DNA from: an uncultured Ignavibacteriota bacterium
Lineage (GTDB): Bacteria > Bacteroidota > Ignavibacteria > UBA10030 > BY39
DNA: 61,814 nt
Direction: 5' to 3'
Assembly (NCBI GenBank): GCA_947085285.1
Contig: CAMTVZ010000165.1
Coordinates: forward strand, 1-61,814
Every line of letters starts with the position of its first letter. Within the stretch, counting starts at the first letter, position 1. The notes under the pieces were generated by a model. It made no database searches, had not been told where the DNA came from, and worked only from the letters and a program-made list of their open reading frames with translations. Below, piece after piece: positions 7,739-27,875 of this stretch. Both the position numbers and the translations under genes were made by a program.

Positions 7739-8455
7739 TTAAATTTTGCCAAACAGACTTTGTAACTTTAATTTCCAAACTAAGAAAACAGCTTCGTAAA
7801 TAATATGCTTTGACATTTTTGACGAGCCGTGTCGTCGGTCAACAAATATAATTGGGTGTTCTACAATTTTAAATCCTTTTTTCCAAGCTTTAAAATTCAT
7901 TTCTATCTGGAAAGCATAGCCATTCGAGTGAATCGCTTCTAGATCAATTGCTTCTAAAACTTTACGACGAAAACATTTGAACCCACCAGTTGTGTCCTTA
8001 ATCTTCATACCTGTGATGATTCGCGTATATAAACTTGCCCCATAGGATAGTATCAATCTGTGAATGGGCCAATTTAAAATTCTAACACCATCGATGTATC
8101 GTGAACCCAATACCAGATCAAAATCTTTTATCTTTCTTAAAAAGTTAGGTATCTCGTTTGGGTCGTGCGAAAAATCGGCATCCATCTCCATTACGTAATC
8201 GAAATTATTCTTGATAGCATATTTGAATCCTTCAACGTATGCGGTTCCTAATCCCATTTTACCGGGTCGTTTAATCAAGTGTATTCGGCGATTACCTGCT
8301 TGCATCCGTTCGACAATTGCCCCCGTGTTATCGGGCGAGTTATCGTCAACTATCAGCATTTCGATTTCAGAATCTTGAGATAAGACGAGGTTAATAAGCC
8401 TTTCGATGTTTTCAGCTTCGTTGTAAGTTGGTGTAATTACTAATGTTTTAGGCAT
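7739..8455 (-). CDS. polyprenol-phosphate mannosyl/glycosyl transferase (Dpm1-like GT2)
   Basis: 238 aa. Motifs VITPTYNEAENI, VDDNSPDNTG, MDADFSHDP (DxD) and GGFKCFRR are typical of dolichyl/polyprenyl-phosphate mannose synthase-type GT2 enzymes. Confidence 0.75.
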   Translation of the reverse strand: MPKTLVITPTYNEAENIERLINLVLSQDSEIEMLIVDDNSPDNTGAIVERMQAGNRRIHLIKRPGKMGLGTAYVEGFKYAIKNNFDYVMEMDADFSHDPNEIPNFLRKIKDFDLVLGSRYIDGVRILNWPIHRLILSYGASLYTRIITGMKIKDTTGGFKCFRRKVLEAIDLEAIHSNGYAFQIEMNFKAWKKGFKIVEHPIIFVDRRHGSSKMSKHIIYEAVFLVWKLKLQSLFGKI

Positions 8456-9648: not shown

Positions 9649-11052
9649 TTAGTGTCCTTTGCCCAAAAACATAACTGCTATAGTATGGAAGATAATTTTA
9701 AAGTCCATTCTTAACGACATATTCTCGATGTAGAAGAGATCGTATTGAACTTTCTTTTTAACATCCTCAATACTCTCATCGTACTTGTGTTTTACTTGTG
9801 CCCATCCTGTAATACCGGGTCTGATTTTTAATCGACGCTTATAAAGTGGTATTTCCTTTGCAAGTAGCTCTACAAAAAAGGGCCTTTCAGGTCGAGGACC
9901 AATTAAACTCATATCGCCATTTAATACATTTATGAATTGTGGAATTTCGTCTAATCTTAATTTGCGTAAAATTTTTCCAACACGAGTTATCCTTGCATCA
10001 TCCTTGTTAGCCCATACAGGTCCCGATTTATGTTCAGCATCTTCTACCATCGAACGGAATTTAATTATCTTGAACAATTTTTCATCTTTTCCAACACGTT
10101 CTTGTGTATAGAATATCGGTCCTTTCGAATCGAGTTTAATTGCAATAGCCAATAGAATCCAAAGTGGCAAACCAAGGAAAAGTATTAAAAACGAAACACT
10201 GATATCTATTAGTCGCTTAACAGCCTGTTCCCACGGCTGCATTAACTCTGTATTAATTTCAATTAGAGGGAAGCCGTAAATTTGGTTTGTACGGGCCTGT
10301 CCACTTATGATATCGTATAAATCGGGTATTATCTTAATTCTAACATCGTTACCATTGCAAGCAGCAATTACCTTCAACAATTTATCGTGCTCAGTTGAAT
10401 CGAGTGCTATTAAAACATCTTTTACTTTATATTGTTCGTTGAGATTTGAAAGGTCGTTTGCTGAACCTAAAACAGGTACCCCTTTATGATTTGCATTCAC
10501 AATTTCCTCTTCGGTCGAAACAAAACCAATGATACGATGCCCTAATGCTGGGTATTGTTGTATCTTGTCGAACAATTCAATTGCTTTATTATTCCATCCT
10601 ACAATAACAGTGTTGTTCAATCCGATGCCGCGTAGCATCAGACCTCGTTGGAAAGTATGATAGATTAATCTGCCAGTTGACGTAAAACCTAAAAGCAAAG
10701 CCCAATAAATTAAAATAAGAAAACGTGAGTGGATTGGGGATCCAACTTTTTGGTCGTCAATGAATATGATGAAGAAGAGGAATAATGTTCCAAAAACAGA
10801 AGCTTTAGCGAGAGCAATAAATTCATCGAGCCGGGATTGAGCACGCCAAGGGCGGTACAACCCAAAGAAAAAGAAAACGATAAGCCAGTAAATCCAGATG
10901 ATAAGCATCGGAAGCACGAGGTCGGGTTCAACGGCATACGATACCCAGCCACTGCGAATTCTAAACCAGTAATAAACATACCACGCTAAATTAATAGCTA
11001 CAAAGTCGATAAGTAATAAATTGTATTTTTCTTTTGAAAATCTACCTTGCAT
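9649..11052 (-). CDS. polyprenyl-phosphate hexose-1-phosphate transferase (WbaP/WcaJ-type initiating phosphoglycosyl transferase)
   Basis: 467 aa with N-terminal TM segments, a Rossmann-like middle and a complete C-terminal sugar-transferase domain. Domain segments: KRLIDISVSF, GPIFYTQERVGK, FKIIKFRSM, LDEIPQFINVLNGDMSLIGPRPE, RPGITGWAQV. Confidence 0.85.
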   Translation of the reverse strand: MQGRFSKEKYNLLLIDFVAINLAWYVYYWFRIRSGWVSYAVEPDLVLPMLIIWIYWLIVFFFFGLYRPWRAQSRLDEFIALAKASVFGTLFLFFIIFIDDQKVGSPIHSRFLILIYWALLLGFTSTGRLIYHTFQRGLMLRGIGLNNTVIVGWNNKAIELFDKIQQYPALGHRIIGFVSTEEEIVNANHKGVPVLGSANDLSNLNEQYKVKDVLIALDSTEHDKLLKVIAACNGNDVRIKIIPDLYDIISGQARTNQIYGFPLIEINTELMQPWEQAVKRLIDISVSFLILFLGLPLWILLAIAIKLDSKGPIFYTQERVGKDEKLFKIIKFRSMVEDAEHKSGPVWANKDDARITRVGKILRKLRLDEIPQFINVLNGDMSLIGPRPERPFFVELLAKEIPLYKRRLKIRPGITGWAQVKHKYDESIEDVKKKVQYDLFYIENMSLRMDFKIIFHTIAVMFLGKGH

Positions 11053-18320: not shown

Positions 18321-19571
18321 TTATACTTTGTCTTTTCTCTTAAGACGAAATCCAAACCAGTCGTTTTTGAGTGTTCTAATTAGTGTATCGAATTGAATCG
18401 GATTATTTTTTTGTAGTTGGTATTTTGTTTCTAATAAGAATATGATGAATAATGATGTAACAGTAGAAATTACTAATGCAAGAAGAGTGTATAAAGCCAC
18501 CTTTGGCTTTGATTTTCTTTCAGGGACTTCAGCCTTGTCTAATACAACAACTGACGGTGTGCTCCTTCTTTCTTCAACTTTAGCCTGTTCAAGCAATGGT
18601 GTTATAAATTGTAAAATCTTATACTGAATTTCTAAATTACGATAAAGCCTGACGTATTCAGCCCCTAATTCCGGCGCTTGTTTGAATGGTATAAATATTT
18701 TCATCTGTTGTTCAGCTGTTGTATTCCCAGAATTCATTTCATTAATTTTCTTTTGTAATTCTTGTATTTCAATTTTAGCCGATTCTACTATAGGGCTTTC
18801 TTCCGAAAGGGTACGTTCCAGAATACTCAACTCAACTTCTTTTGCAATTAATTTACCATAAATATCAGCACCCGCTTTTATTGATGCTTCTATCTGCTCA
18901 GGCATAGCAATTACTCCAAATTTCTCTTGAAATCTTTTTAATGCCAATTCACCCTGACTGATTTCCTCTAAATTTTTGTTATATCGCTGCTCGATAAATT
19001 CTCGATTACCACGTGCATTCTGTACGTGTAATTCGGAATTCGTTTTATTTAGTAGTTCTACAAAATAATTAGCCATCTCGGCAGCACGTTGTGGACTCTT
19101 ATCGAATACTGTAATTGTTAAGTTCCCTTCATCCTGAACTTCGAATTCCACGTTCGACAAAAGTTCCTTAGTTGTTTTTTCCATAGGGTAGCTTTTTATC
19201 TTATAAACGTTTACTAGATCAAACTTCCTGATTACCTCGCTTAATACAGTTGAGCTCTTTAAGATTGCAAGATATCTATCTGTTTCAGTCGGTCCGGTTA
19301 ATGAACCTAATTTTTTACCAGGTGCGAAAGTCTTTACCAGTGATGAAATCCCCTCAACACCCGAAAGTAAGTCGGTTTGCTCAGCCGGAAATACTGATGC
19401 TGTTGCTTTGTACCATTTGGGACTAAAGTAAGCTATGATAGTGGTTGTAAAAGTAACAACAATAATGAACCAAACAAGAAAACGTCGGTACTTTGTTAAA
19501 ACTGATAAAAAATCAAGTAATGTGCTTCCTAATGTTATTGTTTTATCTTCTTGATTAAATTCTTCCATCAC
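18321..19571 (-). CDS. polysaccharide co-polymerase / chain-length determinant (Wzz/GumC-like, no kinase domain)
   Basis: 416 aa with an N-terminal TM (FLVWFIIVVTFTTTIIAYF), then a PKWYKATASV Wzz-type motif. A long coiled-coil periplasmic region follows, then a C-terminal TM (LYTLLALVISTVTSLFIIFLL). Confidence 0.7.
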   Translation of the reverse strand: MMEEFNQEDKTITLGSTLLDFLSVLTKYRRFLVWFIIVVTFTTTIIAYFSPKWYKATASVFPAEQTDLLSGVEGISSLVKTFAPGKKLGSLTGPTETDRYLAILKSSTVLSEVIRKFDLVNVYKIKSYPMEKTTKELLSNVEFEVQDEGNLTITVFDKSPQRAAEMANYFVELLNKTNSELHVQNARGNREFIEQRYNKNLEEISQGELALKRFQEKFGVIAMPEQIEASIKAGADIYGKLIAKEVELSILERTLSEESPIVESAKIEIQELQKKINEMNSGNTTAEQQMKIFIPFKQAPELGAEYVRLYRNLEIQYKILQFITPLLEQAKVEERRSTPSVVVLDKAEVPERKSKPKVALYTLLALVISTVTSLFIIFLLETKYQLQKNNPIQFDTLIRTLKNDWFGFRLKRKDKV

Positions 19572-19585
19572 ATCTTTCTATATTG

Positions 19586-21241
19586 TTATTTTGATACTTG
19601 TACAATTAAAACTGCAATTCCAATTACAACACTTAATATACTTGCTGTTTGGCTTAAGATTGTTGTATAATATGCGAATGTCCTTTCGGGTTTTTTGGGA
19701 ACCCAAATATAATCACCCTCCTCGATCGTTGTTTCGTCCGGCTCTAACCATTGTTTTGTTTTTGCTTTGATTATTTTTACGTCCCCTTTTCTCGCTGCAT
19801 CTGTAAAACCACCGCATTTGGCGATGTAATATTCCATCGACTCACCTTTGACGAAGGGGATATGCCCGGGGGTAATTACTTGACCGAAAACATATATCGT
19901 ATTTTTTATAGAAGGTATTTGTATATAATCGCCATTCTTGAGTAAAACATCCTGCGATTTATCATTTTGTAAAAATAATTTTTCGAAATCTACGTTCACG
20001 ATTTCTTTTCGGAGGCGAAGCTCAGTTTCCATAAAGTATGAAGCTGTATCGTCCGGAGATATGCTGCCGCGCATGCTCATAATCCGTTCGATGTCCATTT
20101 CGCGTGGCGAAACCGACTGCCTGTAAAGTTCAGCCGATTTGAGTGAAGCGAATTCAGTAAACCCTCCGGCCGATTGAATCGCATCTGATAAACGACTGTT
20201 ATTTTTAGTAATAGGATATGTTCCGGGGTACTTAACCTCGCCTCCAATATGTACAACGAAATCTTCTCTCAATTCTAATTTTTGTTTAACTACAATTCTG
20301 TCGCACGGTACAAGCGGAATATTTTTAGAATTTCCGTCATAAATTTCGCTTAATTTTAGAATTTTAGTTTCAATTGTTTTGGCTTCCTCGTCGAGGCGTG
20401 AGAATTCGATACTATCTAAATTTGCTAAAGGAGTAGAACCGAGGGCTATTTTTAAAGCATCGGTAATGCTGTCGCCATCAACAAACTCGAATCTCCCCGG
20501 ATTATTTACTTCGCCATAAACACCGATAACATTCTTAATTGGATTTTTCCTCGGTACAATAATTACATCGCCTTCGCGAAGGTAGGGATTATGTTTGTCT
20601 TCTTTTGTAGCTAAAAACTTTGGAATATCTATTCTGATGCTCGAACCATCTTTTCGTTTTAACAGAATGTTTCGTGTTGACATCCTCTCGATGACTGCGG
20701 ATAGTTCACTTTGAGTTTGCCGCTGCGACAGTGTATTGGCAGCTTGTAAGGCTTTATCGACACGATCGACTGCTGATAGAGTGTAGAGGGCTGGATTCAA
20801 TACATTGCCGGATACAGTTACTACGACAGGGCGCGGTTCTATAAGGGTAACAGTTATCTCGCTTGCAATATATTTTTTCCGGACTTCCGCATGAACAATT
20901 TTTTTTACTTCGGCTAAAGTTTTATCAGCAACTTTCACTTCACCGACGGTCGGAATGATAAGTGTCCCTTCGGGGGTAACTGTCAAAAAAAAATTAACAG
21001 CAGGACTTATCCAGATGTTTACCGCAATTTTATCAGACGGTCCTACAAAATATTTTTCAGCATCTACCGTTCCTTCTAAAGCCACCTGTTGTGGTTGTGG
21101 CATTAATTGTTGATATTGCCTTGATTTAGAATCAAAGTTATCAAAGATATTGTTTGTCTCTTTGTCTTTGCTAAACTGTCCAACAGTAGTTGAGGTAAAA
21201 AGTAATAGCAAAAATAAAACTATGTTTTTAATTTTAATCAA
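19586..21241 (-). CDS. polysaccharide export protein (Wza-like; Poly_export + multiple SLBB domains)
   Basis: 551 aa with a signal peptide and YxVGPSDKIAVNIW (Poly_export PES motif region). It has repeated SLBB-like units (GEVxxPGxY...L..AI..AGG) and a C-terminal hydrophobic helix. Confidence 0.75.
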   Translation of the reverse strand: MIKIKNIVLFLLLLFTSTTVGQFSKDKETNNIFDNFDSKSRQYQQLMPQPQQVALEGTVDAEKYFVGPSDKIAVNIWISPAVNFFLTVTPEGTLIIPTVGEVKVADKTLAEVKKIVHAEVRKKYIASEITVTLIEPRPVVVTVSGNVLNPALYTLSAVDRVDKALQAANTLSQRQTQSELSAVIERMSTRNILLKRKDGSSIRIDIPKFLATKEDKHNPYLREGDVIIVPRKNPIKNVIGVYGEVNNPGRFEFVDGDSITDALKIALGSTPLANLDSIEFSRLDEEAKTIETKILKLSEIYDGNSKNIPLVPCDRIVVKQKLELREDFVVHIGGEVKYPGTYPITKNNSRLSDAIQSAGGFTEFASLKSAELYRQSVSPREMDIERIMSMRGSISPDDTASYFMETELRLRKEIVNVDFEKLFLQNDKSQDVLLKNGDYIQIPSIKNTIYVFGQVITPGHIPFVKGESMEYYIAKCGGFTDAARKGDVKIIKAKTKQWLEPDETTIEEGDYIWVPKKPERTFAYYTTILSQTASILSVVIGIAVLIVQVSK

Positions 21242-21255
21242 TGTTCAGTTCCTCA

Positions 21256-22269
21256 TTATCTATTTTCGTACATGTTTTTATAATATTCTTGATACTCGCC
21301 GCTAATTATCCGTTGCCACCATTCTTTGTTGTTTAAATACCATTCGATTGTTTCGGTGATACCTTCTTCAAATGTATAGCGCGGTTGCCAGTTCAATTCG
21401 TTTTTAATTTTGCTTGCATCTATTGCATATCTCAAATCGTGCCCTGGACGGTCTTTCACAAAGGTTATTAAACTTTCTGGTTTATTCAACTTTGCTAAGA
21501 GAAGTTTAACAATGTCGATATTTTTCCATTCGTTATTTCCACCGATGTTATAAACTTCGCCAATTTTTCCTTTATGAAGTACTACGTCGATAGCTTCGCA
21601 ATGATCGAGTACGTGCAGCCAATCTCGTACGTTAGTTCCATTCCCATAAACTGGAAGTGGTTTGTCGTTTAGTGCGTTTGCAATCATCAACGGTATTAAT
21701 TTTTCTGGGAATTGGTATGGTCCGTAATTGTTTGAACAGCGGGTAATAAGAACAGGGATTCCAAATGTATGTTGATAAGCCAAAGCAAGTAAATCGGCGC
21801 CGGTTTTGCTTGCGGCATAAGGACTGTTGGGATGGAGTGGAGAATCTTCCGTAAATTTCCCTGAGCTTCCTAATGAACCATAAACTTCATCTGTCGACAC
21901 TTGAAGAAACTTCTCGACACCATGTTCCTTTGCTAATTCTAATAGGACCTGAGTTCCGAGCACATTTGTTTGTATAAAAATTGTTGCACCTAATATGCTG
22001 CGGTCGACGTGCGACTCAGCTGCGAAATTTACTACAGTGTCGATTTGATATTTCTGTAAAACATTTGCAACGGCTTCCTTGTCGCAAATGTCGCCTTTTA
22101 TAAATTTGTAATTTGGATTTGATTCTACACTCTTCAGGTTTTCTAAATTTCCTGCATAGGTTAGCTTATCAAAATTGACTATCCTGTAATCAGGATATTT
22201 GTTAAGGATATAGTGGATAAAGTTGCTACCAATAAACCCAGCTCCTCCTGTAACTAAAAAATTTTTCAT
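21256..22269 (-). CDS. rfbB: dTDP-glucose 4,6-dehydratase
   Basis: 337 aa. Motifs: GGAGFIGSNF, AAESHVDRS, STDEVYG, PYAASKTGADLL (YxxxK), and DRPGHDLRYAID. Confidence 0.9.
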   Translation of the reverse strand: MKNFLVTGGAGFIGSNFIHYILNKYPDYRIVNFDKLTYAGNLENLKSVESNPNYKFIKGDICDKEAVANVLQKYQIDTVVNFAAESHVDRSILGATIFIQTNVLGTQVLLELAKEHGVEKFLQVSTDEVYGSLGSSGKFTEDSPLHPNSPYAASKTGADLLALAYQHTFGIPVLITRCSNNYGPYQFPEKLIPLMIANALNDKPLPVYGNGTNVRDWLHVLDHCEAIDVVLHKGKIGEVYNIGGNNEWKNIDIVKLLLAKLNKPESLITFVKDRPGHDLRYAIDASKIKNELNWQPRYTFEEGITETIEWYLNNKEWWQRIISGEYQEYYKNMYENR

Positions 22270-22272
22270 AGA

Positions 22273-22749
22273 TTAATCTTCAATTTTAAAAATTGTGTTA
22301 GGATCGTTTTCGTGCCGAATTTCATCAACTTTTTCTTTTTTCCCAATTCCCATGAATAATCGGTTCGGATAATTTGTTACCATCCCGAGTTGATTGCCAA
22401 TATTTTTATATGCGTGGACTACTCCTGGGGGAACAAGAATTGATTTTGGTTCATCCTCGCCGGCAGTGATTATCATTTTATTCAGGTAAGTTGGGGAATT
22501 CTTCCTATTATCCCATAGATAAATTTTGAAAGTCGATGGACCTATGAATCCAAATAAATCTGTCTGCTCGATGTGTTCGTGTGGACCGCGAGCAACTTGA
22601 GGTTTCGTCATTGAAATGTACGACATTTCGGGGCGAAATTCTGCTAAAAGTTCATCGTTGCGAAAAGTTTCGATAAGCCAACCGCGTTGGTCTGAATATT
22701 TACTTAATACTTTTATTACCACACCATTGATTGGAGCGTAGTTGAACAT
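22273..22749 (-). CDS. rfbC: dTDP-4-dehydrorhamnose 3,5-epimerase family protein (short cupin form)
   Basis: 158 aa. DQRGWLIETFR, RGPHEH and PPGVVHAYKN match the epimerase cupin core. No rfbA or rfbD lies in the window. Confidence 0.7.
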   Translation of the reverse strand: MFNYAPINGVVIKVLSKYSDQRGWLIETFRNDELLAEFRPEMSYISMTKPQVARGPHEHIEQTDLFGFIGPSTFKIYLWDNRKNSPTYLNKMIITAGEDEPKSILVPPGVVHAYKNIGNQLGMVTNYPNRLFMGIGKKEKVDEIRHENDPNTIFKIED

Positions 22750-23083
22750 ATTGTTTCCTGAATAGTTTGAAAATCTGCTTGAAAATAAGAAAAAAAGCTT
22801 TAAAAAACAATGGTAGCAATATGTTCGGTAAGTATTCCTTTATGTTTTTATGAAAATTCTGTGGAATGAATCTACAAAAAGCCCACATTAAAATCAAATA
22901 AAGGGGCTCTCCAATAAGTCCGAATACCTCGCCCTTGATGTTTGTCGAAATCTAAAACTGTGGAGTAATGAGCATTAGAACAAGTTCAGGGGATCGGGCA
23001 TTTTTGCTATTTGGGAAACTTCTTACGAGGGCTGATTTATAAAAGTATTTTTTTTAATAACTCAGCCCCCATTAGATTACTGA

Positions 23084-24238
23084 TTATGCAACTAAAACTT
23101 CTTTAGTTTTTTTTGTTAATTCGGCGGGTGTGAATGGTTTTGGGATGATGTCGAATGCACCTAATCTTATTGCTTCAATTGCATTTTCGATTGAAGCATA
23201 ACCTGAAATCATAATTACAGGTATTTCGGGCCAATTCCTTTTTATAGATTGCAGAACTTCAATACCGCTCCGCTTGGGCATCTTTAAATCTAACAGTATC
23301 AAATCGTATCTATTGAGTTTCATTTTTTGCAATGCTGCATCTACGTCGAATGCTTCTTCAACGGCGCAGCTTTGTTTAGATAAAATTTTTCGGACACTGT
23401 GGCAAACTATTGGCTCATCGTCAACAACTAATATGGAATGCTTTGCCGTTGCATCTCTGCCCCATAATGCTGTTAAAGGTATATCCGATCTGCTCAGACA
23501 ATTTATGTAATCGGAATTCGTTGCTTGTTCAACCTCAGAGATGCTGAATGGGAGGTCGGCATCGATTATTTCGGATGTATATCGTTTTACTTTAACGGCT
23601 TTTGTTCGCTCTTTCTTTTCGATTGGACATTCCCCGATACATTCACGCCCTTCGGTGATAACACGGCGGCATTCACGTTTCCCCAAATTGCAGTATGCTT
23701 TGACGGCTTCCTTTTTTGCAAGGGGCATATCGGAATGAGTAAGGGCTTCAACATATTCTATCGAAGTTGCTCTGGCTACTTCGTTTTTATTGAATGGCAT
23801 ATCAACATCAATTATTTCGGAAGTTTGCTCATAAACTTTGGGTTCAACTTTTCGTTGCTCAATTTTTAATTGTCGTTGTGTTAAAGCTTTTTTTGTAGCT
23901 TCGCTTAATTCATCGGGGGTGAAGGGTTTCGGTAAGTAGCTCGAAGCTCCAAGCTTTGTTGCCTTTACTGCTGATTCGATGGATGCGTAGCCAGTTATCA
24001 TTATTACTTCGAGGTCAGGATAATGATCTCGTATAATTTGCATCAATTCTATTCCGTTAGTTTTAGGCATCATTAAATCGGTAATCACTAAATCGAATGA
24101 AGTTTGATTAATTTTTTTAATTGCATCTTCAACACTCAATGCATTTTCTACTTCATAACCTTTGCGTGAGAGAATTTTATTTATACTTCTGCACACGGTT
24201 TCTTCGTCGTCGACCACTAATATTTTTTCAGTTATCAT
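23084..24238 (-). CDS. dual response-regulator receiver protein with a duplicated linker module and a four-Cys cluster (REC-[rpt-CX6CX9CX3CP-rpt]-REC); no output domain
   Basis: 384 aa.
- REC1 (aa 1-120): VVDDEE, ITD54LMMP, YLPKPF.
- REC2 (aa 268-384): VVDDEP, LLD317LKMP, IIPKPF.
- The linker holds two copies of SEIID[VA]D[ML]PF..EV..AT...Y.....SD[MI]PL, at aa 140-173 and 222-255.
- The copies flank C183-x6-C190-x9-C200-x3-C204-P.
- SD-like AAGGAA lies 8 nt upstream of the ATG. Confidence 0.8.
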   Translation of the reverse strand: MITEKILVVDDEETVCRSINKILSRKGYEVENALSVEDAIKKINQTSFDLVITDLMMPKTNGIELMQIIRDHYPDLEVIMITGYASIESAVKATKLGASSYLPKPFTPDELSEATKKALTQRQLKIEQRKVEPKVYEQTSEIIDVDMPFNKNEVARATSIEYVEALTHSDMPLAKKEAVKAYCNLGKRECRRVITEGRECIGECPIEKKERTKAVKVKRYTSEIIDADLPFSISEVEQATNSDYINCLSRSDIPLTALWGRDATAKHSILVVDDEPIVCHSVRKILSKQSCAVEEAFDVDAALQKMKLNRYDLILLDLKMPKRSGIEVLQSIKRNWPEIPVIMISGYASIENAIEAIRLGAFDIIPKPFTPAELTKKTKEVLVA

Positions 24239-24291
24239 TTTAATTTCCTTTTGATTTTTGATTAATTATAATTTTTTCATGCTTCTATAAC

Positions 24292-24307
24292 TGCAATCGC
24301 TATGCCA
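24292..24307 (-). promoter_or_regulatory. sigma-54 (-24/-12) promoter for the dual-REC gene
   Basis: The minus strand reads TGGCAT-AGCGA-TTGCA, against the consensus TGGCAC-N5-TTGCW with exact GG/GC spacing. The -12 element lies about 55 nt upstream of the ATG at 24238. A sigma-54 activator gene is immediately upstream. Confidence 0.6.
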
Positions 24308-24505
24308 TTGAAGTTTTAATGGGGAGTGATTAGCTATAATCTATTATATTATAATGAGTTATGGATGGAAAAATTATGGAAGAGTGAGGGATTTACGATT
24401 TTTATCACAAAAAATATAAATAGGAAAATGCTTAAATTGGGTTGGGAGGCGTATATTATTGAGATAAAAAAAATATACACCTGCATCTAAAATTGTGCAT
24501 AAAAA

Positions 24506-25900
24506 TTATTTTGAAATACCGTATTTCCGCATCAAAGCTTGAAAATTGGAGCGCTGCATTTCAACATCACGAGCAGCTTTCGAGATATTCCAGTTGTTTC
24601 GGATGAGAGCTTCTTCTATAAACATTTTTTCTATATCTTGAATTGATGCTTCACGTATTTGTTTCTTTAGCTTTTTGAGTTCCTCAGAATTTTTTGGGAT
24701 GAGTGATTTTGTTTGTGTCTCGGTTTTAAAGAGGGCGGCTGAAATATGAACAGGCAATATTTCATTTCCATCAACTAATATTGTTAATCGTTCAATTGTG
24801 TGTTCAAGTTCGCGAACATTTCCGGGCCAATGGTAATTAAGCAAAACTTCACAGGCTTCAAGTCCGATTTTTGGGATTGGTTTTGATAATTTGTTACAAG
24901 AAATTTTTAGAAATTTTTTTATCAGTTCAGGTATATCTTCTTTCCTCTCACGAAGTGGTGGTAGTTTAATAGGGAAAACATTCAGCCGGTAATAAAGGTC
25001 TTCCCGAAATTTTCCTTCGCTAACCAAGTTTTTCAAATTCTGGTTGGTAGCAAAAATCAATCGGACATCGACGTTTTTGATTTTTGTGCTTCCGACCGGA
25101 AGAATTTCTTTAGTTTGCAGAACGCGTAGTAACCGCGACTGTACTTCGAGCGATAGGTTACCGATTTCATCTAAGAAGATGGTTCCGTTATCAGCAACTT
25201 CAAACAATCCTTGTTTGTCGGAGGTAGCTCCAGTGAACGAACCTTTTTTATGGCCGAACAATTCGCTCTCTAACAAGGTAGTCGATAGTGTAGATATATC
25301 TAATGCAAAAAATTTTTCCTCTTTCCGTTTGCTGCAATTATGTATCGCTCGTGCTGTTAAATCTTTGCCGGTTCCGCTCTCACCGATTATTAAAACGGTG
25401 CAATCGGTAGGGGCAACTTTCCGAATTAAATTAAAAACCTCAATCATTTTAGGGCTTTGTCCGATAAAACCTTCAAAAACAGAAGCTTCAAAAGGCTCGG
25501 TTTCGTTTTTCATTTGTTGTATCAGTTTGCGTTTTTCTAATGCACGGTTGAGAACAGCTAAAAGTTCATTAGGAGTGAATGGTTTAGGGAGAAAATCGAA
25601 TGCACCCGATCGCATTGTTTCGACTGCTGCTGCAATAGTCGCATAACCAGTTATAATGATTACGACAGTCTCAGGATACCGCTGTTTGATTGTGGTTAAA
25701 ATCTCAAATCCACTTATATCCAACATCTTCAAATCGGTGAAGACCACATCGAAAGAATCGGATTGCAAAAGTGCAAGCGCCTGCTTGCCTGTTGTGCTGT
25801 ATTGTACTTTGTGTCCGGCACGCAGGAATATTTTTTCACAACTCTTACAGATAACTAATTCATCGTCAACGACTAATATTTTGGCTGTCATTTGTTTCAA
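24506..25900 (-). CDS. sigma-54-dependent Fis-family response regulator (NtrC-type enhancer-binding protein)
   Basis: 464 aa. REC domain: VVDDE, FTDLKM, LPKPF. AAA+ domain: GESGTGKDL, ELFGHKKGSFTGA (a GAFTGA variant), FLDEIG, RVLQ...PVG, FREDLYYRL. C-terminal HTH: NWNISKAARDVEMQRSNFQALMRKYGI. Confidence 0.9.
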   Translation of the reverse strand: MKQMTAKILVVDDELVICKSCEKIFLRAGHKVQYSTTGKQALALLQSDSFDVVFTDLKMLDISGFEILTTIKQRYPETVVIIITGYATIAAAVETMRSGAFDFLPKPFTPNELLAVLNRALEKRKLIQQMKNETEPFEASVFEGFIGQSPKMIEVFNLIRKVAPTDCTVLIIGESGTGKDLTARAIHNCSKRKEEKFFALDISTLSTTLLESELFGHKKGSFTGATSDKQGLFEVADNGTIFLDEIGNLSLEVQSRLLRVLQTKEILPVGSTKIKNVDVRLIFATNQNLKNLVSEGKFREDLYYRLNVFPIKLPPLRERKEDIPELIKKFLKISCNKLSKPIPKIGLEACEVLLNYHWPGNVRELEHTIERLTILVDGNEILPVHISAALFKTETQTKSLIPKNSEELKKLKKQIREASIQDIEKMFIEEALIRNNWNISKAARDVEMQRSNFQALMRKYGISK

Positions 25901-27875
25901 TTTCTAATGATTTTATTGGTAGATAGATAGTGAATGTAGTTCCGTTGCCCGTTACACTCTCGACATTTATAGTCCCGCCGTGCTGCTCAATAATTCCGTA
26001 ACTAATAGAAAGTCCTAATCCTGTGCCGTGTTCTTTTGTAGTAAAGAATGGGTCAAAAATTTTATCCCGAATGTGTTCTGGTATGCCGGGCCCTGTATCC
26101 TTAATCGAAACAACAATCGAGTTCTCATTTGCATCCATTTTTGATTCAATAATTAAATCGCCACCGCGAGTCATTGCTTCTGATGCGTTCAAAATTATGT
26201 TTATGAAAACTTGCTGAATTTGATCAGGGTCTGCCATTATTTCTGGTAGATCTTTTGAGAGATTTTTTTCAATCTTAATGTTTCGGAAAGAGGTCTGATT
26301 TCTTACCAGAAGAATTATGTTCTCGATTAAAGTGTTGATGTTTATTATTTTTTTTTGAGGAGCTATTTGTTTAGCAAAATCGAGGAGTCGCTTTACAATT
26401 TCGCGGCAACGTATCGTTTCTTTGACTATCAATTCAACGTCGTCACGCTTCGGATCGCCTTTCGGTAAATCTTCTAACAGTATGCTGCTGTTAGTTAATA
26501 TGCCGGTCAATGGATTGTTAATTTCGTGAGCAACACCTGCGGCAAGTTTGCCGAGCGAAGCAAGTTTTTCTGAACGGAATAATTGTGAGTGAATTTTTTT
26601 TATCTCCTTTGTCCGTTCTTCAACTTTTATTTCGAGTTTATTTCCCCATTCTTCTAGTTCAAGTTTCTCATTCTCGAGTTCTCTTGCCATGTAATTCAGT
26701 GAAGCTGCAAGTCGTTCAATCTCGCGCGGCGCCTTAAGTTCGAGATTGTGGTGATATTTACCCTCCGTTATTTCTACTGCGATTTCTTCCAACTTTTTCA
26801 GTGGGTTTGATATTTTTTTTGCCTGATGTATCGAAATTAAAACTATTAAAAGAATACCGACTAATGTAATTCCAAGAAAAGTTATTAAGGTATTTCGCAA
26901 TAAATCGTTAAACGGTTCTTTAAGAATACCCACATAAAGGATTCCGATAATTTTATTTTGAATATCCTTGATTGGTTCGTAGGCGCCGATGTACCAAGTG
27001 TTGACTACAAAGGCATCGCCAATCCAAAGTTTGCCATCTCTCAGTACGGCATCGTTTACTTCTTCTGAGACCAAGGTTGTGATAGCAACACTGCCGTCCT
27101 CGTTTTTCACGTTGGTCGAAATCCGCAAATCGTTCAAAAATATTGTAGCAGTGCTAACCTCCTTGCCTTTATATAATTCAGGCTCCTGCATAATTTTTTT
27201 AATTTTGTTAACAATTTCAAAATTCCTATTCAACAAAATTCCACCAATTAACACGCCTTGAAAAATATTTTCATCGTCGAAAATCGGCACGGCTGCCTTC
27301 AGCATCATACCCGATTTTTCTGAAAGCGATGTTCGGGGTTTGGCCATCGGTGTTGGAGTTATTTCCATGTGAGCTTGCTTGGCAAGGTCGGCTGATTCTC
27401 TATATAATTGATCAGCCGATACCACATCGGTCCCTGTTACAATTTGTTTAGTTTTTATAACCCGTTCAACGAAAAGATCATTAATTAATAAATCGCCGAA
27501 GGAATTCGGGTTTCTTCCGCGTGAAATAACTTTCCCATTCTTGTCAACGACAGTTAATATGTCGATTTGTTCACGTCTGAGAGTTCGTAGCAAATCTTTC
27601 TGTAAAAAATTTTTATCGTTTTCGCTGACTGCTTTTATCACTAAACTTCGGGCTGCTGTAAGTCGAACAATGCTCTCAATTTGTGAGATTTTATTTTGGT
27701 AAATTTCGCGTGCTGAGCTTAAATCGGAACGAACTTTTGTTTCGGCTCGAGTAATTATTTGGTCATAAATTAATTTCACCCCCACGATGCTTGTAATTAC
27801 AGCGGGAATAATAATAGCAATTGTGAAATAAATAATTAATTGAGATTGGATGCTTTTGGTTGTAAATGGTTTCAT
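25866..27875 (-). CDS. sensor histidine kinase (TM - extracytoplasmic Cache-like domain - TM - HAMP - HisKA - HATPase_c)
   Basis: 669 aa with two TM segments bracketing a sensor domain of about 300 aa and a HAMP-like segment after TM2. H-box GVAHEINNPL, N-box NIILNASEA, G-boxes DTGPGI and GTGLGLS. It overlaps the NtrC-type gene by 35 nt. Confidence 0.85.
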   Translation of the reverse strand: MKPFTTKSIQSQLIIYFTIAIIIPAVITSIVGVKLIYDQIITRAETKVRSDLSSAREIYQNKISQIESIVRLTAARSLVIKAVSENDKNFLQKDLLRTLRREQIDILTVVDKNGKVISRGRNPNSFGDLLINDLFVERVIKTKQIVTGTDVVSADQLYRESADLAKQAHMEITPTPMAKPRTSLSEKSGMMLKAAVPIFDDENIFQGVLIGGILLNRNFEIVNKIKKIMQEPELYKGKEVSTATIFLNDLRISTNVKNEDGSVAITTLVSEEVNDAVLRDGKLWIGDAFVVNTWYIGAYEPIKDIQNKIIGILYVGILKEPFNDLLRNTLITFLGITLVGILLIVLISIHQAKKISNPLKKLEEIAVEITEGKYHHNLELKAPREIERLAASLNYMARELENEKLELEEWGNKLEIKVEERTKEIKKIHSQLFRSEKLASLGKLAAGVAHEINNPLTGILTNSSILLEDLPKGDPKRDDVELIVKETIRCREIVKRLLDFAKQIAPQKKIININTLIENIILLVRNQTSFRNIKIEKNLSKDLPEIMADPDQIQQVFINIILNASEAMTRGGDLIIESKMDANENSIVVSIKDTGPGIPEHIRDKIFDPFFTTKEHGTGLGLSISYGIIEQHGGTINVESVTGNGTTFTIYLPIKSLEIETNDSQNISR

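Follow-up and report, generated by a model that had tools for sequence, protein, structure and literature searches.

Few components of bacterial two-component signalling are as poorly understood as proteins built only of receiver (REC) domains. FrzZ of Myxococcus xanthus has tandem CheY-like receivers in a REC-linker-REC arrangement and is fed by the CheA-type kinase of a chemosensory system; to our knowledge its linker contains no four-cysteine (Cys4) cluster or repeated module. CheY1 of Sinorhizobium meliloti is a phosphate-sink receiver, which competes for the phosphoryl groups of its kinase and shortens or damps signalling. Rhizobial NifA has an interdomain C-x11-C-x19-C-x4-C motif for which metal binding and oxygen sensitivity have been proposed. 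FixT of Caulobacter crescentus is a single-domain receiver that is induced by FixLJ and inhibits the autophosphorylation of FixL. Its residues C53, C56, C59 and C64 bind an oxygen-labile [4Fe-4S] cluster, which protects FixT from Lon (PMC7078487). Here we describe a protein with two receivers and a Cys4 linker, which we call REC-X-REC, encoded on contig CAMTVZ010000165.1 (GCA_947085285.1) of an uncultured Ignavibacteriota bacterium. The window is the whole stretch of 61,814 nt that was analysed. FixT is the only receiver binding an iron-sulfur (Fe-S) cluster that was found in a literature search; the REC-X-REC family would be a second, independent solution, with the metal centre in a dedicated inserted domain.

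The REC-X-REC gene occupies 23084..24238 on the minus strand, with its ATG at 24238 and its stop at 23084, and encodes 384 aa. A first-pass annotation, made from the letters of the window alone, had given this open reading frame (ORF) correctly while leaving out the strand. It had also described two intact receivers and no output domain, and both points hold. Pfam PF00072 (Response_reg) matches two separate stretches (E=1.3e-65; 218.9 bits against a cut-off of 30.2), and Pfam and NCBIfam find no domain other than REC in the protein. REC1 (aa 5-118; 23885..24226, minus strand) has the D10/D11 acid pocket, the acceptor D54, T82, Y101 and K104, all six of which are kept in 33 of 33 homologues. 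REC2 (aa 267-380; 23099..23440, minus strand; Pfam stretch 269-377) has D273/D274, the acceptor D317, S345 and K367. The catalytic residues of both receivers, with S or T accepted at position 345, are conserved in 31-33 of the 33 homologues; the aromatic-switch position of REC2 is I364, where most orthologues have F or Y. The product is a genuine two-receiver signalling protein without an output domain.

In having two phosphorylatable receivers and no output domain REC-X-REC is like FrzZ, but its partners are a HisKA kinase and an NtrC-type regulator, not a CheA-type kinase and a chemosensory cluster. Foldseek searches with the full-length model return only REC matches, with PleD (1w25, 2v0n) on top. 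PleD shares the tandem receivers; there the second REC serves as an adaptor that is not phosphorylated, and a GGDEF output domain comes after it, whereas both receivers of REC-X-REC are catalytically complete and are separated by a 148-aa insert, with no output. REC1 and REC2 are 52% identical to one another, and each is about 45% identical to the REC of the neighbouring activator; all three receivers have a (V/I)C.S..KI motif in helix 1.

Cysteines occur in the 384-aa protein at positions 16, 183, 190, 200, 204, 247, 279 and 291. A cysteine stands at the same helix-1 position in all three receivers (C16 of REC1, C279 of REC2, and 'LVICKS' in the product of the activator gene 24506-25900), on the face usually used for kinase docking, and C16 is shared by at least 90% of the dual-REC homologues.

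The insert between the receivers spans about 130-148 aa, and in it a basic Cys4 knot is flanked by two acidic modules of 35-40 aa. The acidic module A (aa 140-173; 23720..23821, minus strand) has the pattern SEIIDVDMPF..EV..AT..EYV..LTHSDMPL and is predicted to form a short beta-hairpin and two helices. Module A' (aa 222-255; 23474..23575, minus strand), with the pattern SEIIDADLPF..EV..AT..DYINCLSRSDIPL, repeats module A and includes C247. The two protein-level copies map exactly to the residues proposed for them in the first-pass annotation, and the corresponding linker halves align with 21/40 identities (BLASTP, E=8e-15). The duplication had been said to be visible in the DNA as well. A direct repeat of 34 nt, 79% identical and with a spacing of 246 nt (82 codons), is indeed present, but it comprises only the TSEIIDxDxPF start of each module, and identity over the full module is 56/102 nt, weaker than had been implied. 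D226, D228, P230 and S251 of A' are invariant in the alignment of full-length REC-X-REC proteins; C247 is found in 27 of 33 homologues and is conserved only within a subfamily.

The Cys4 module (aa 182-212; 23603..23695, minus strand) reads YC-NLGKRE-C-x9-C-x3-CP and then enters a Lys-rich helix; its cysteine spacing, C183-x6-C190-x9-C200-x3-C204-P205, is as first reported. Among the 33 full-length homologues C183, G186, C190 and C204 are each present in 33/33 and C200 in 32/33, so that the four cysteines pass the conservation check that had been suggested for them. The same five positions reach at least 90% conservation in a set of 14 full-length REC-X-REC proteins with identities of 32-70%, and across 48 linkers C183, G186, C190 and C204 are invariant while the third Cys is shifted by one column. 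A linker-only AlphaFold model has a mean predicted local distance difference test score (pLDDT) of 78.9, rising to 91-93 over the Cys module. The fold predicted for this module by AlphaFold2 is a beta-hairpin with the first and second Cys, a short helix, a loop with the third Cys, and the fourth Cys at the start of the Lys-rich helix; the helix following the module is predicted at linker residues 73-84. The Cys4 knot probably binds metal. A four-Cys interdomain motif in a regulator of a sigma-54 system is also what NifA has; there the motif lies within the activator itself, between AAA+ and helix-turn-helix (HTH) domains, with other spacing and no flanking repeats, and the two are not homologous.

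Mean pairwise identities, calculated by region for 24 Ignavibacteria orthologues, show that the linker is no low-complexity spacer, as the first-pass annotation had argued. REC1 and REC2 stand at 77.5% and 77%; module A, the Cys module and module A' follow at 66%, 72% and 65%, against 24-42% for the spacers before module A and at the Cys-A' junction (aa 119-138 and 213-220). By their sequence conservation the linker modules are folded, selected units and not a tether. That the linker is a domain also follows from the recurrence of its modules in other arrangements and as stand-alone small proteins, described below.

Searches for a known family or fold agree with the earlier statement that the linker is not a described domain. 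Taken by itself, the linker (23474-23821) matches no model in Pfam or NCBIfam, no Pfam family is matched consistently by the 48 linkers, and PDB sequences searched with profiles of the linker (alignments A2 and A4) and of the A module (A7) gave no meaningful match. Foldseek searches with the linker model gave no significant match in the PDB (best E=6, with RING/PHD fingers at E of about 6-9 and probability of at most 0.06) or in BFVD (best E=0.84). Three candidate families were tried and rejected. For ferredoxin-type 4Fe-4S (Fer4) domains, neither the protein nor any of the 48 linkers has a hidden Markov model (HMM) match; the ferredoxin likeness that had been seen in the CxxxCP end comes down to a terminal C-P, the only common feature, with the Pro in 26 of 33 homologues. 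The high-potential iron-sulfur protein (HiPIP) family was dismissed for the linker on HMM and Foldseek evidence. Membership of the zinc ribbon, treble-clef or RING-PHD groups was rejected for want of a CxxC pair and of any significant fold or sequence match; zf-CCCH is matched by 3 of the 48 linkers, at E of at least 0.05. On sequence grounds, therefore, the linker matches no known family and its cysteines are conserved, and the Cys4 knot and the IDVDMPF module are rare, previously undescribed sequence modules that merit a domain entry.

Linker relatives numbered 8 by word-indexed search and 79 by profile search, and a HMMER scan that covered all 1.84 billion cluster representatives found only 50 linker clusters at E<=1e-3. 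A profile of the 40-aa A module, meant to find the module in other protein contexts, gave only 11 candidates and one new match of 67 aa. The source names of the relatives are only 'hypothetical protein', 'response regulator' or 'CheY-like'. Among them the modules are arranged as REC-A-Cys, Cys-A'-REC, REC-Cys-A'-REC and A-A-Cys. Cys-A proteins of about 106-119 aa stand alone (P0074, P0075, P0101, P0103, P0106, P0114 and P0119). Stand-alone A-A' proteins of about 110-120 aa, without Cys module or REC, make up at least 35 clusters (e.g. P0031, P0037, P0042 and P0051; loci L036/L037); the Cys module is cleanly missing from them, and their gene contexts are inconsistent and are not two-component loci. 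These stand-alone forms of the IDVDMPF module suggest an unrecognised interaction function.

REC-X-REC is the third gene of a unit. Directly upstream, always, is the gene for an NtrC-type response regulator (24506-25900, minus strand) with REC, sigma-54 AAA+ and Fis-type HTH domains in Pfam; NCBIfam reached no equivalog cut-off. One gene further is a sensor histidine kinase (25866-27875, minus strand) with Cache_3-Cache_2 / sCache_3_3, HAMP, HisKA and HATPase_c domains in Pfam. The first-pass annotation had spoken of an adjacent kinase, which is not correct: the adjoining gene is the regulator. Species-representative genomes were scanned for the locus with a 9-sequence linker alignment (A2). 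The scan found 26 loci, all in metagenome-assembled genomes (MAGs) labelled Ignavibacteria, Bacteroidota or 'Chlorobiaceae', the closest 90% identical. The order Cache-HAMP-HisKA kinase, NtrC-type sigma-54 activator, REC-X-REC is found in all 23 loci with enough flank, including that of a 43%-identical homologue of another lineage (L003/L004), and no che genes are found among the neighbours of the unit. The kinase is the presumed phosphodonor of REC-X-REC.

The intergenic gap of about 267 bp between activator and REC-X-REC contains a sigma-54 (-24/-12) promoter on the minus strand (24292-24307). Its sequence, TGGCATAGCGATTGCA, fits the consensus TGGCAC-N5-TTGCW with 0 mismatches, and its 3' end is 54 nt upstream of the REC-X-REC ATG. 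The element is conserved: in 23 of 25 related loci TGGCA[CT]N5TTG stands between -62 and -99 (about -70), and the other two have the variant TGGCAY-N4-TTATGC. Elsewhere in 637 kb of locus sequence, both strands included, there are only 3 more matches, and about 0.0003 would be expected per 70-nt window. The circuit is compact, with three genes and one sigma-54 promoter.

Sigma-54-like matches with at most 1 mismatch are over-represented in the window as a whole (17, against 6.9 +/- 2.4 in shuffles). The sole other exact match, at 9847-9862, is probably non-functional since it is a plus-strand site inside a run of minus-strand genes. Sigma-54 promoters before neighbouring hdr or hydrogenase genes are sporadic (only L001 and L020), and we do not claim these genes as targets. 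Rfam finds nothing in the window.

Our preferred reading, to which we give a probability of roughly 0.4, is that REC-X-REC is induced by its own pathway, accepts phosphoryl groups at two sites and feeds back on the kinase, with the state of the Cys4 centre modulating it. A ligand of the Cache domain would activate the histidine kinase, the kinase would phosphorylate the sigma-54 activator, and the activator would turn on the REC-X-REC gene. REC-X-REC would then dock on the same kinase, as its receivers are close paralogues of the activator's receiver, and would drain phosphoryl groups or inhibit the kinase, so that negative feedback sets in with a delay. The stability or activity of the feedback protein would depend on the state of the Cys4 centre, which would thereby add an input from intracellular redox or iron, as in FixT; the centre could be an Fe-S cluster that is labile to oxygen or redox change, or, failing that, a structural Zn site. 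The architecture, its conservation, the gene order, the promoter and the lack of a known-domain match are direct observations. Which kinase phosphorylates REC-X-REC, the sign of the feedback and the cofactor are the points that we infer. That the protein might be a phosphate sink or a connector had been suggested at the outset, and the idea gains from the conserved sigma-54 promoter downstream of a sigma-54 activator and from the receiver paralogy.

FixT is the closest documented analogue. Both are output-less receivers with four conserved Cys. FixT is induced by the pathway on which it acts, and so would REC-X-REC be if the sigma-54 promoter beside the sigma-54 activator is read in this way. 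FixT, however, has one receiver with C-x2-C-x2-C-x4-C inside the REC fold, whereas REC-X-REC has two receivers and its Cys, differently spaced, in an inserted domain. FixT acts in FixLJ-FixK and REC-X-REC in a Cache kinase and sigma-54 activator pathway; there is no homology outside REC, and Fe-S binding has been shown for FixT while it is putative for REC-X-REC. REC-X-REC may thus work like FixT, but with its Cys in a separate domain, their different spacing and no non-REC homology it does not belong to the FixT family. Sinks of the CheY1 type are similar in that an extra receiver competes at the same kinase; they differ in being single receivers in chemotaxis that lack a cofactor domain and are not known to be induced by their pathway.

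Several points weigh against a metal-gated feedback protein of this kind. The spacing C-x6-C-x9-C-x3-C corresponds neither to a ferredoxin motif nor to a CxxC zinc knuckle, P205 is not invariant, and the only structural neighbours of the linker are non-significant RING/PHD zinc fingers. The existence of stand-alone A-A' proteins without Cys or REC means that the A module has a function independent of phosphorylation, which the feedback model does not explain. We infer from adjacency that the NtrC-type activator drives the REC-X-REC promoter; no binding site for the activator could be picked out when the intergenic regions were aligned, where conserved blocks are shared among close relatives only and form no clear palindrome. 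Every relative comes from a metagenome or MAG and none from a cultured organism, and the hdr and hydrogenase genes that flank many of the related loci are absent from the window.

For the cofactor the evidence points two ways. The centre may be Fe-S: CxxC knuckles are absent, a C-P ending is common, the hosts seem to be anaerobes, and redox-enzyme genes are neighbours at many loci. It may instead be Zn: the predicted fold is a small hairpin plus helix, the weak structural neighbours are all zinc fingers, and the Pro is not invariant. Taken further, the linker could be a new redox- or iron-sensing Fe-S domain made of the Cys4 knot and an acidic interaction module, and could make the sigma-54 two-component circuit a coincidence detector, in which the Cache kinase would report an external ligand and the Fe-S-gated, pathway-induced tandem receiver the intracellular redox state. 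We regard this extension as doubtful. An Fe-S centre would make the circuit an example of how anaerobes join the sensing of extracellular ligands to their intracellular redox state.

The same observations can be arranged differently. Induced and phosphorylated, REC-X-REC could be the true output of the pathway, a forward connector or adaptor whose A and A' modules bind partners such as redox enzymes or polysaccharide-export machinery in a phosphorylation-dependent way, with the Cys4 centre as structural Zn only. The A modules are conserved and acidic, and their stand-alone A-A' occurrence in at least 35 clusters is a pattern typical of an interaction module; the REC-X-REC gene is the only conserved local sigma-54 target, its flanks fall into two recurrent classes (hdr/hydrogenase or rmlCB-wza), and zinc fingers are the weak structural neighbours of the linker. 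We consider this role unlikely all the same, since no partner protein has come to light, the stand-alone A-A' genes lie in inconsistent contexts, and competition at the kinase explains more simply why both receivers are such close paralogues of the activator's receiver.

An output of another sort is improbable, namely that the basic Cys4 knot and the Lys/Arg-rich helix (CPIEKKERTKAVKVKR) form a small metal-stabilised domain binding DNA or RNA, which would make the protein a regulator under the control of two receivers. It would account for the strongly basic Cys module with its following predicted helix and for Cys-A mini-proteins of about 106-119 aa that exist alone, and the nearest folds, which are not significant, are zinc fingers. 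Yet the Cys module is only about 30 aa long and has no likeness to any DNA-binding family, homologue P0095 retains A, A' and both REC folds without it, and nothing in the context points to a DNA target. The near-invariance of the four Cys among 33 homologues would also suit a metal-free thiol/disulfide switch, in which reversible disulfides shift the relative position of the receivers; response regulators under thiol control are known, among them Rre1/RpaA/RpaB (PMC9321951) and ArcA (PMC8728512). A compact four-Cys cluster with an invariant Gly and tolerated insertions in the loop between the third and fourth Cys (x3 to x8) is more typical of a metal site, however, and the hosts, to judge from their MAG labels, are mostly anaerobes with a reducing cytoplasm, so that such a switch seems very improbable. 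The pathway-induced phospho-acceptor with feedback on its kinase is the reading we retain.

Variants of the protein were seen in several forms. P0095 (397 aa), the dual-REC homologue that keeps A and A' and lacks the Cys module, has a degenerate second receiver in which the acceptor D is changed to N and part of the acid pocket is lost. The link between loss of the Cys module and decay of REC2 is not general, because P0102 and P0104 have a degenerate REC2 and yet retain the Cys. A divergent subfamily (P0083, P0084, P0087, P0099, P0105, P0108 and P0122) has C-x6-C-x9-C-x8-CP and a variant 'B' module, LIGIDQPF..EV...TGPEYV...PYEELK; in P0087 the A-Cys-B unit occurs twice between the receivers, as REC-[A-Cys-B]x2-REC. 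P0016 (187 aa) and similar proteins keep the Cys module and end in a decayed REC N-terminus; these and the stand-alone A-A' proteins may be functional mini-proteins or decaying copies. P0012 and P0013 (189 aa), where an internal deletion has removed everything between the start of A' and the middle of REC2, are probably damaged copies. At L032 a stand-alone Cys-A gene adjoins a gene for a small Fer4-type ferredoxin.

The REC-X-REC ORF is unbroken in 24 of 25 related loci. At L001 (GCA_964520905.1, the same contig as L011) an in-frame TAG at 7959-7961 splits the orthologue between REC1 and the linker, and gene calling gives two genes, with the IDVDMPF Met as the start of the second. Because the other 24 loci have an intact ORF, we read this TAG as probably a nonsense mutation or assembly error and not a true split. 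An apparent second 'split' gene at L005 was discarded as evidence; that assembly is riddled with frameshifts.

The surroundings of the three-gene unit are of two main kinds. At approximately 14 of the 26 loci (including L001, L012, L013, L015-L019, L023, L025, L027, L028 and L031) it has a divergent MarR gene and hdrCBA-like cluster on its upstream side, and on its downstream side a convergent [NiFe]-hydrogenase cluster (large subunit, small subunit, HycI); such flanks fit a redox-linked role. A DUF362 gene is nearby at L003/L004 and L036. In the window and about 5-6 relatives the unit instead has Bat-type genes on the upstream side, and the cluster downstream is a co-directional rmlC-rmlB-wza; L006, L008, L010, L024 and L030 are arranged in this way. 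In the window this cluster comprises rmlC, rmlB, a Wza-like exporter gene and a Wzz-like gene (18321-22749), on the minus strand like REC-X-REC, and a 334-bp gap (22750-23083) separates the two. A scan of 22700-24600 for sigma-70 promoters and terminators gave results no better than shuffled sequence, with no minus-strand terminator. Since no terminator is detected in the 334-bp gap and the arrangement recurs in five loci, it is possible that sigma-54 transcription reads through into the polysaccharide cluster.

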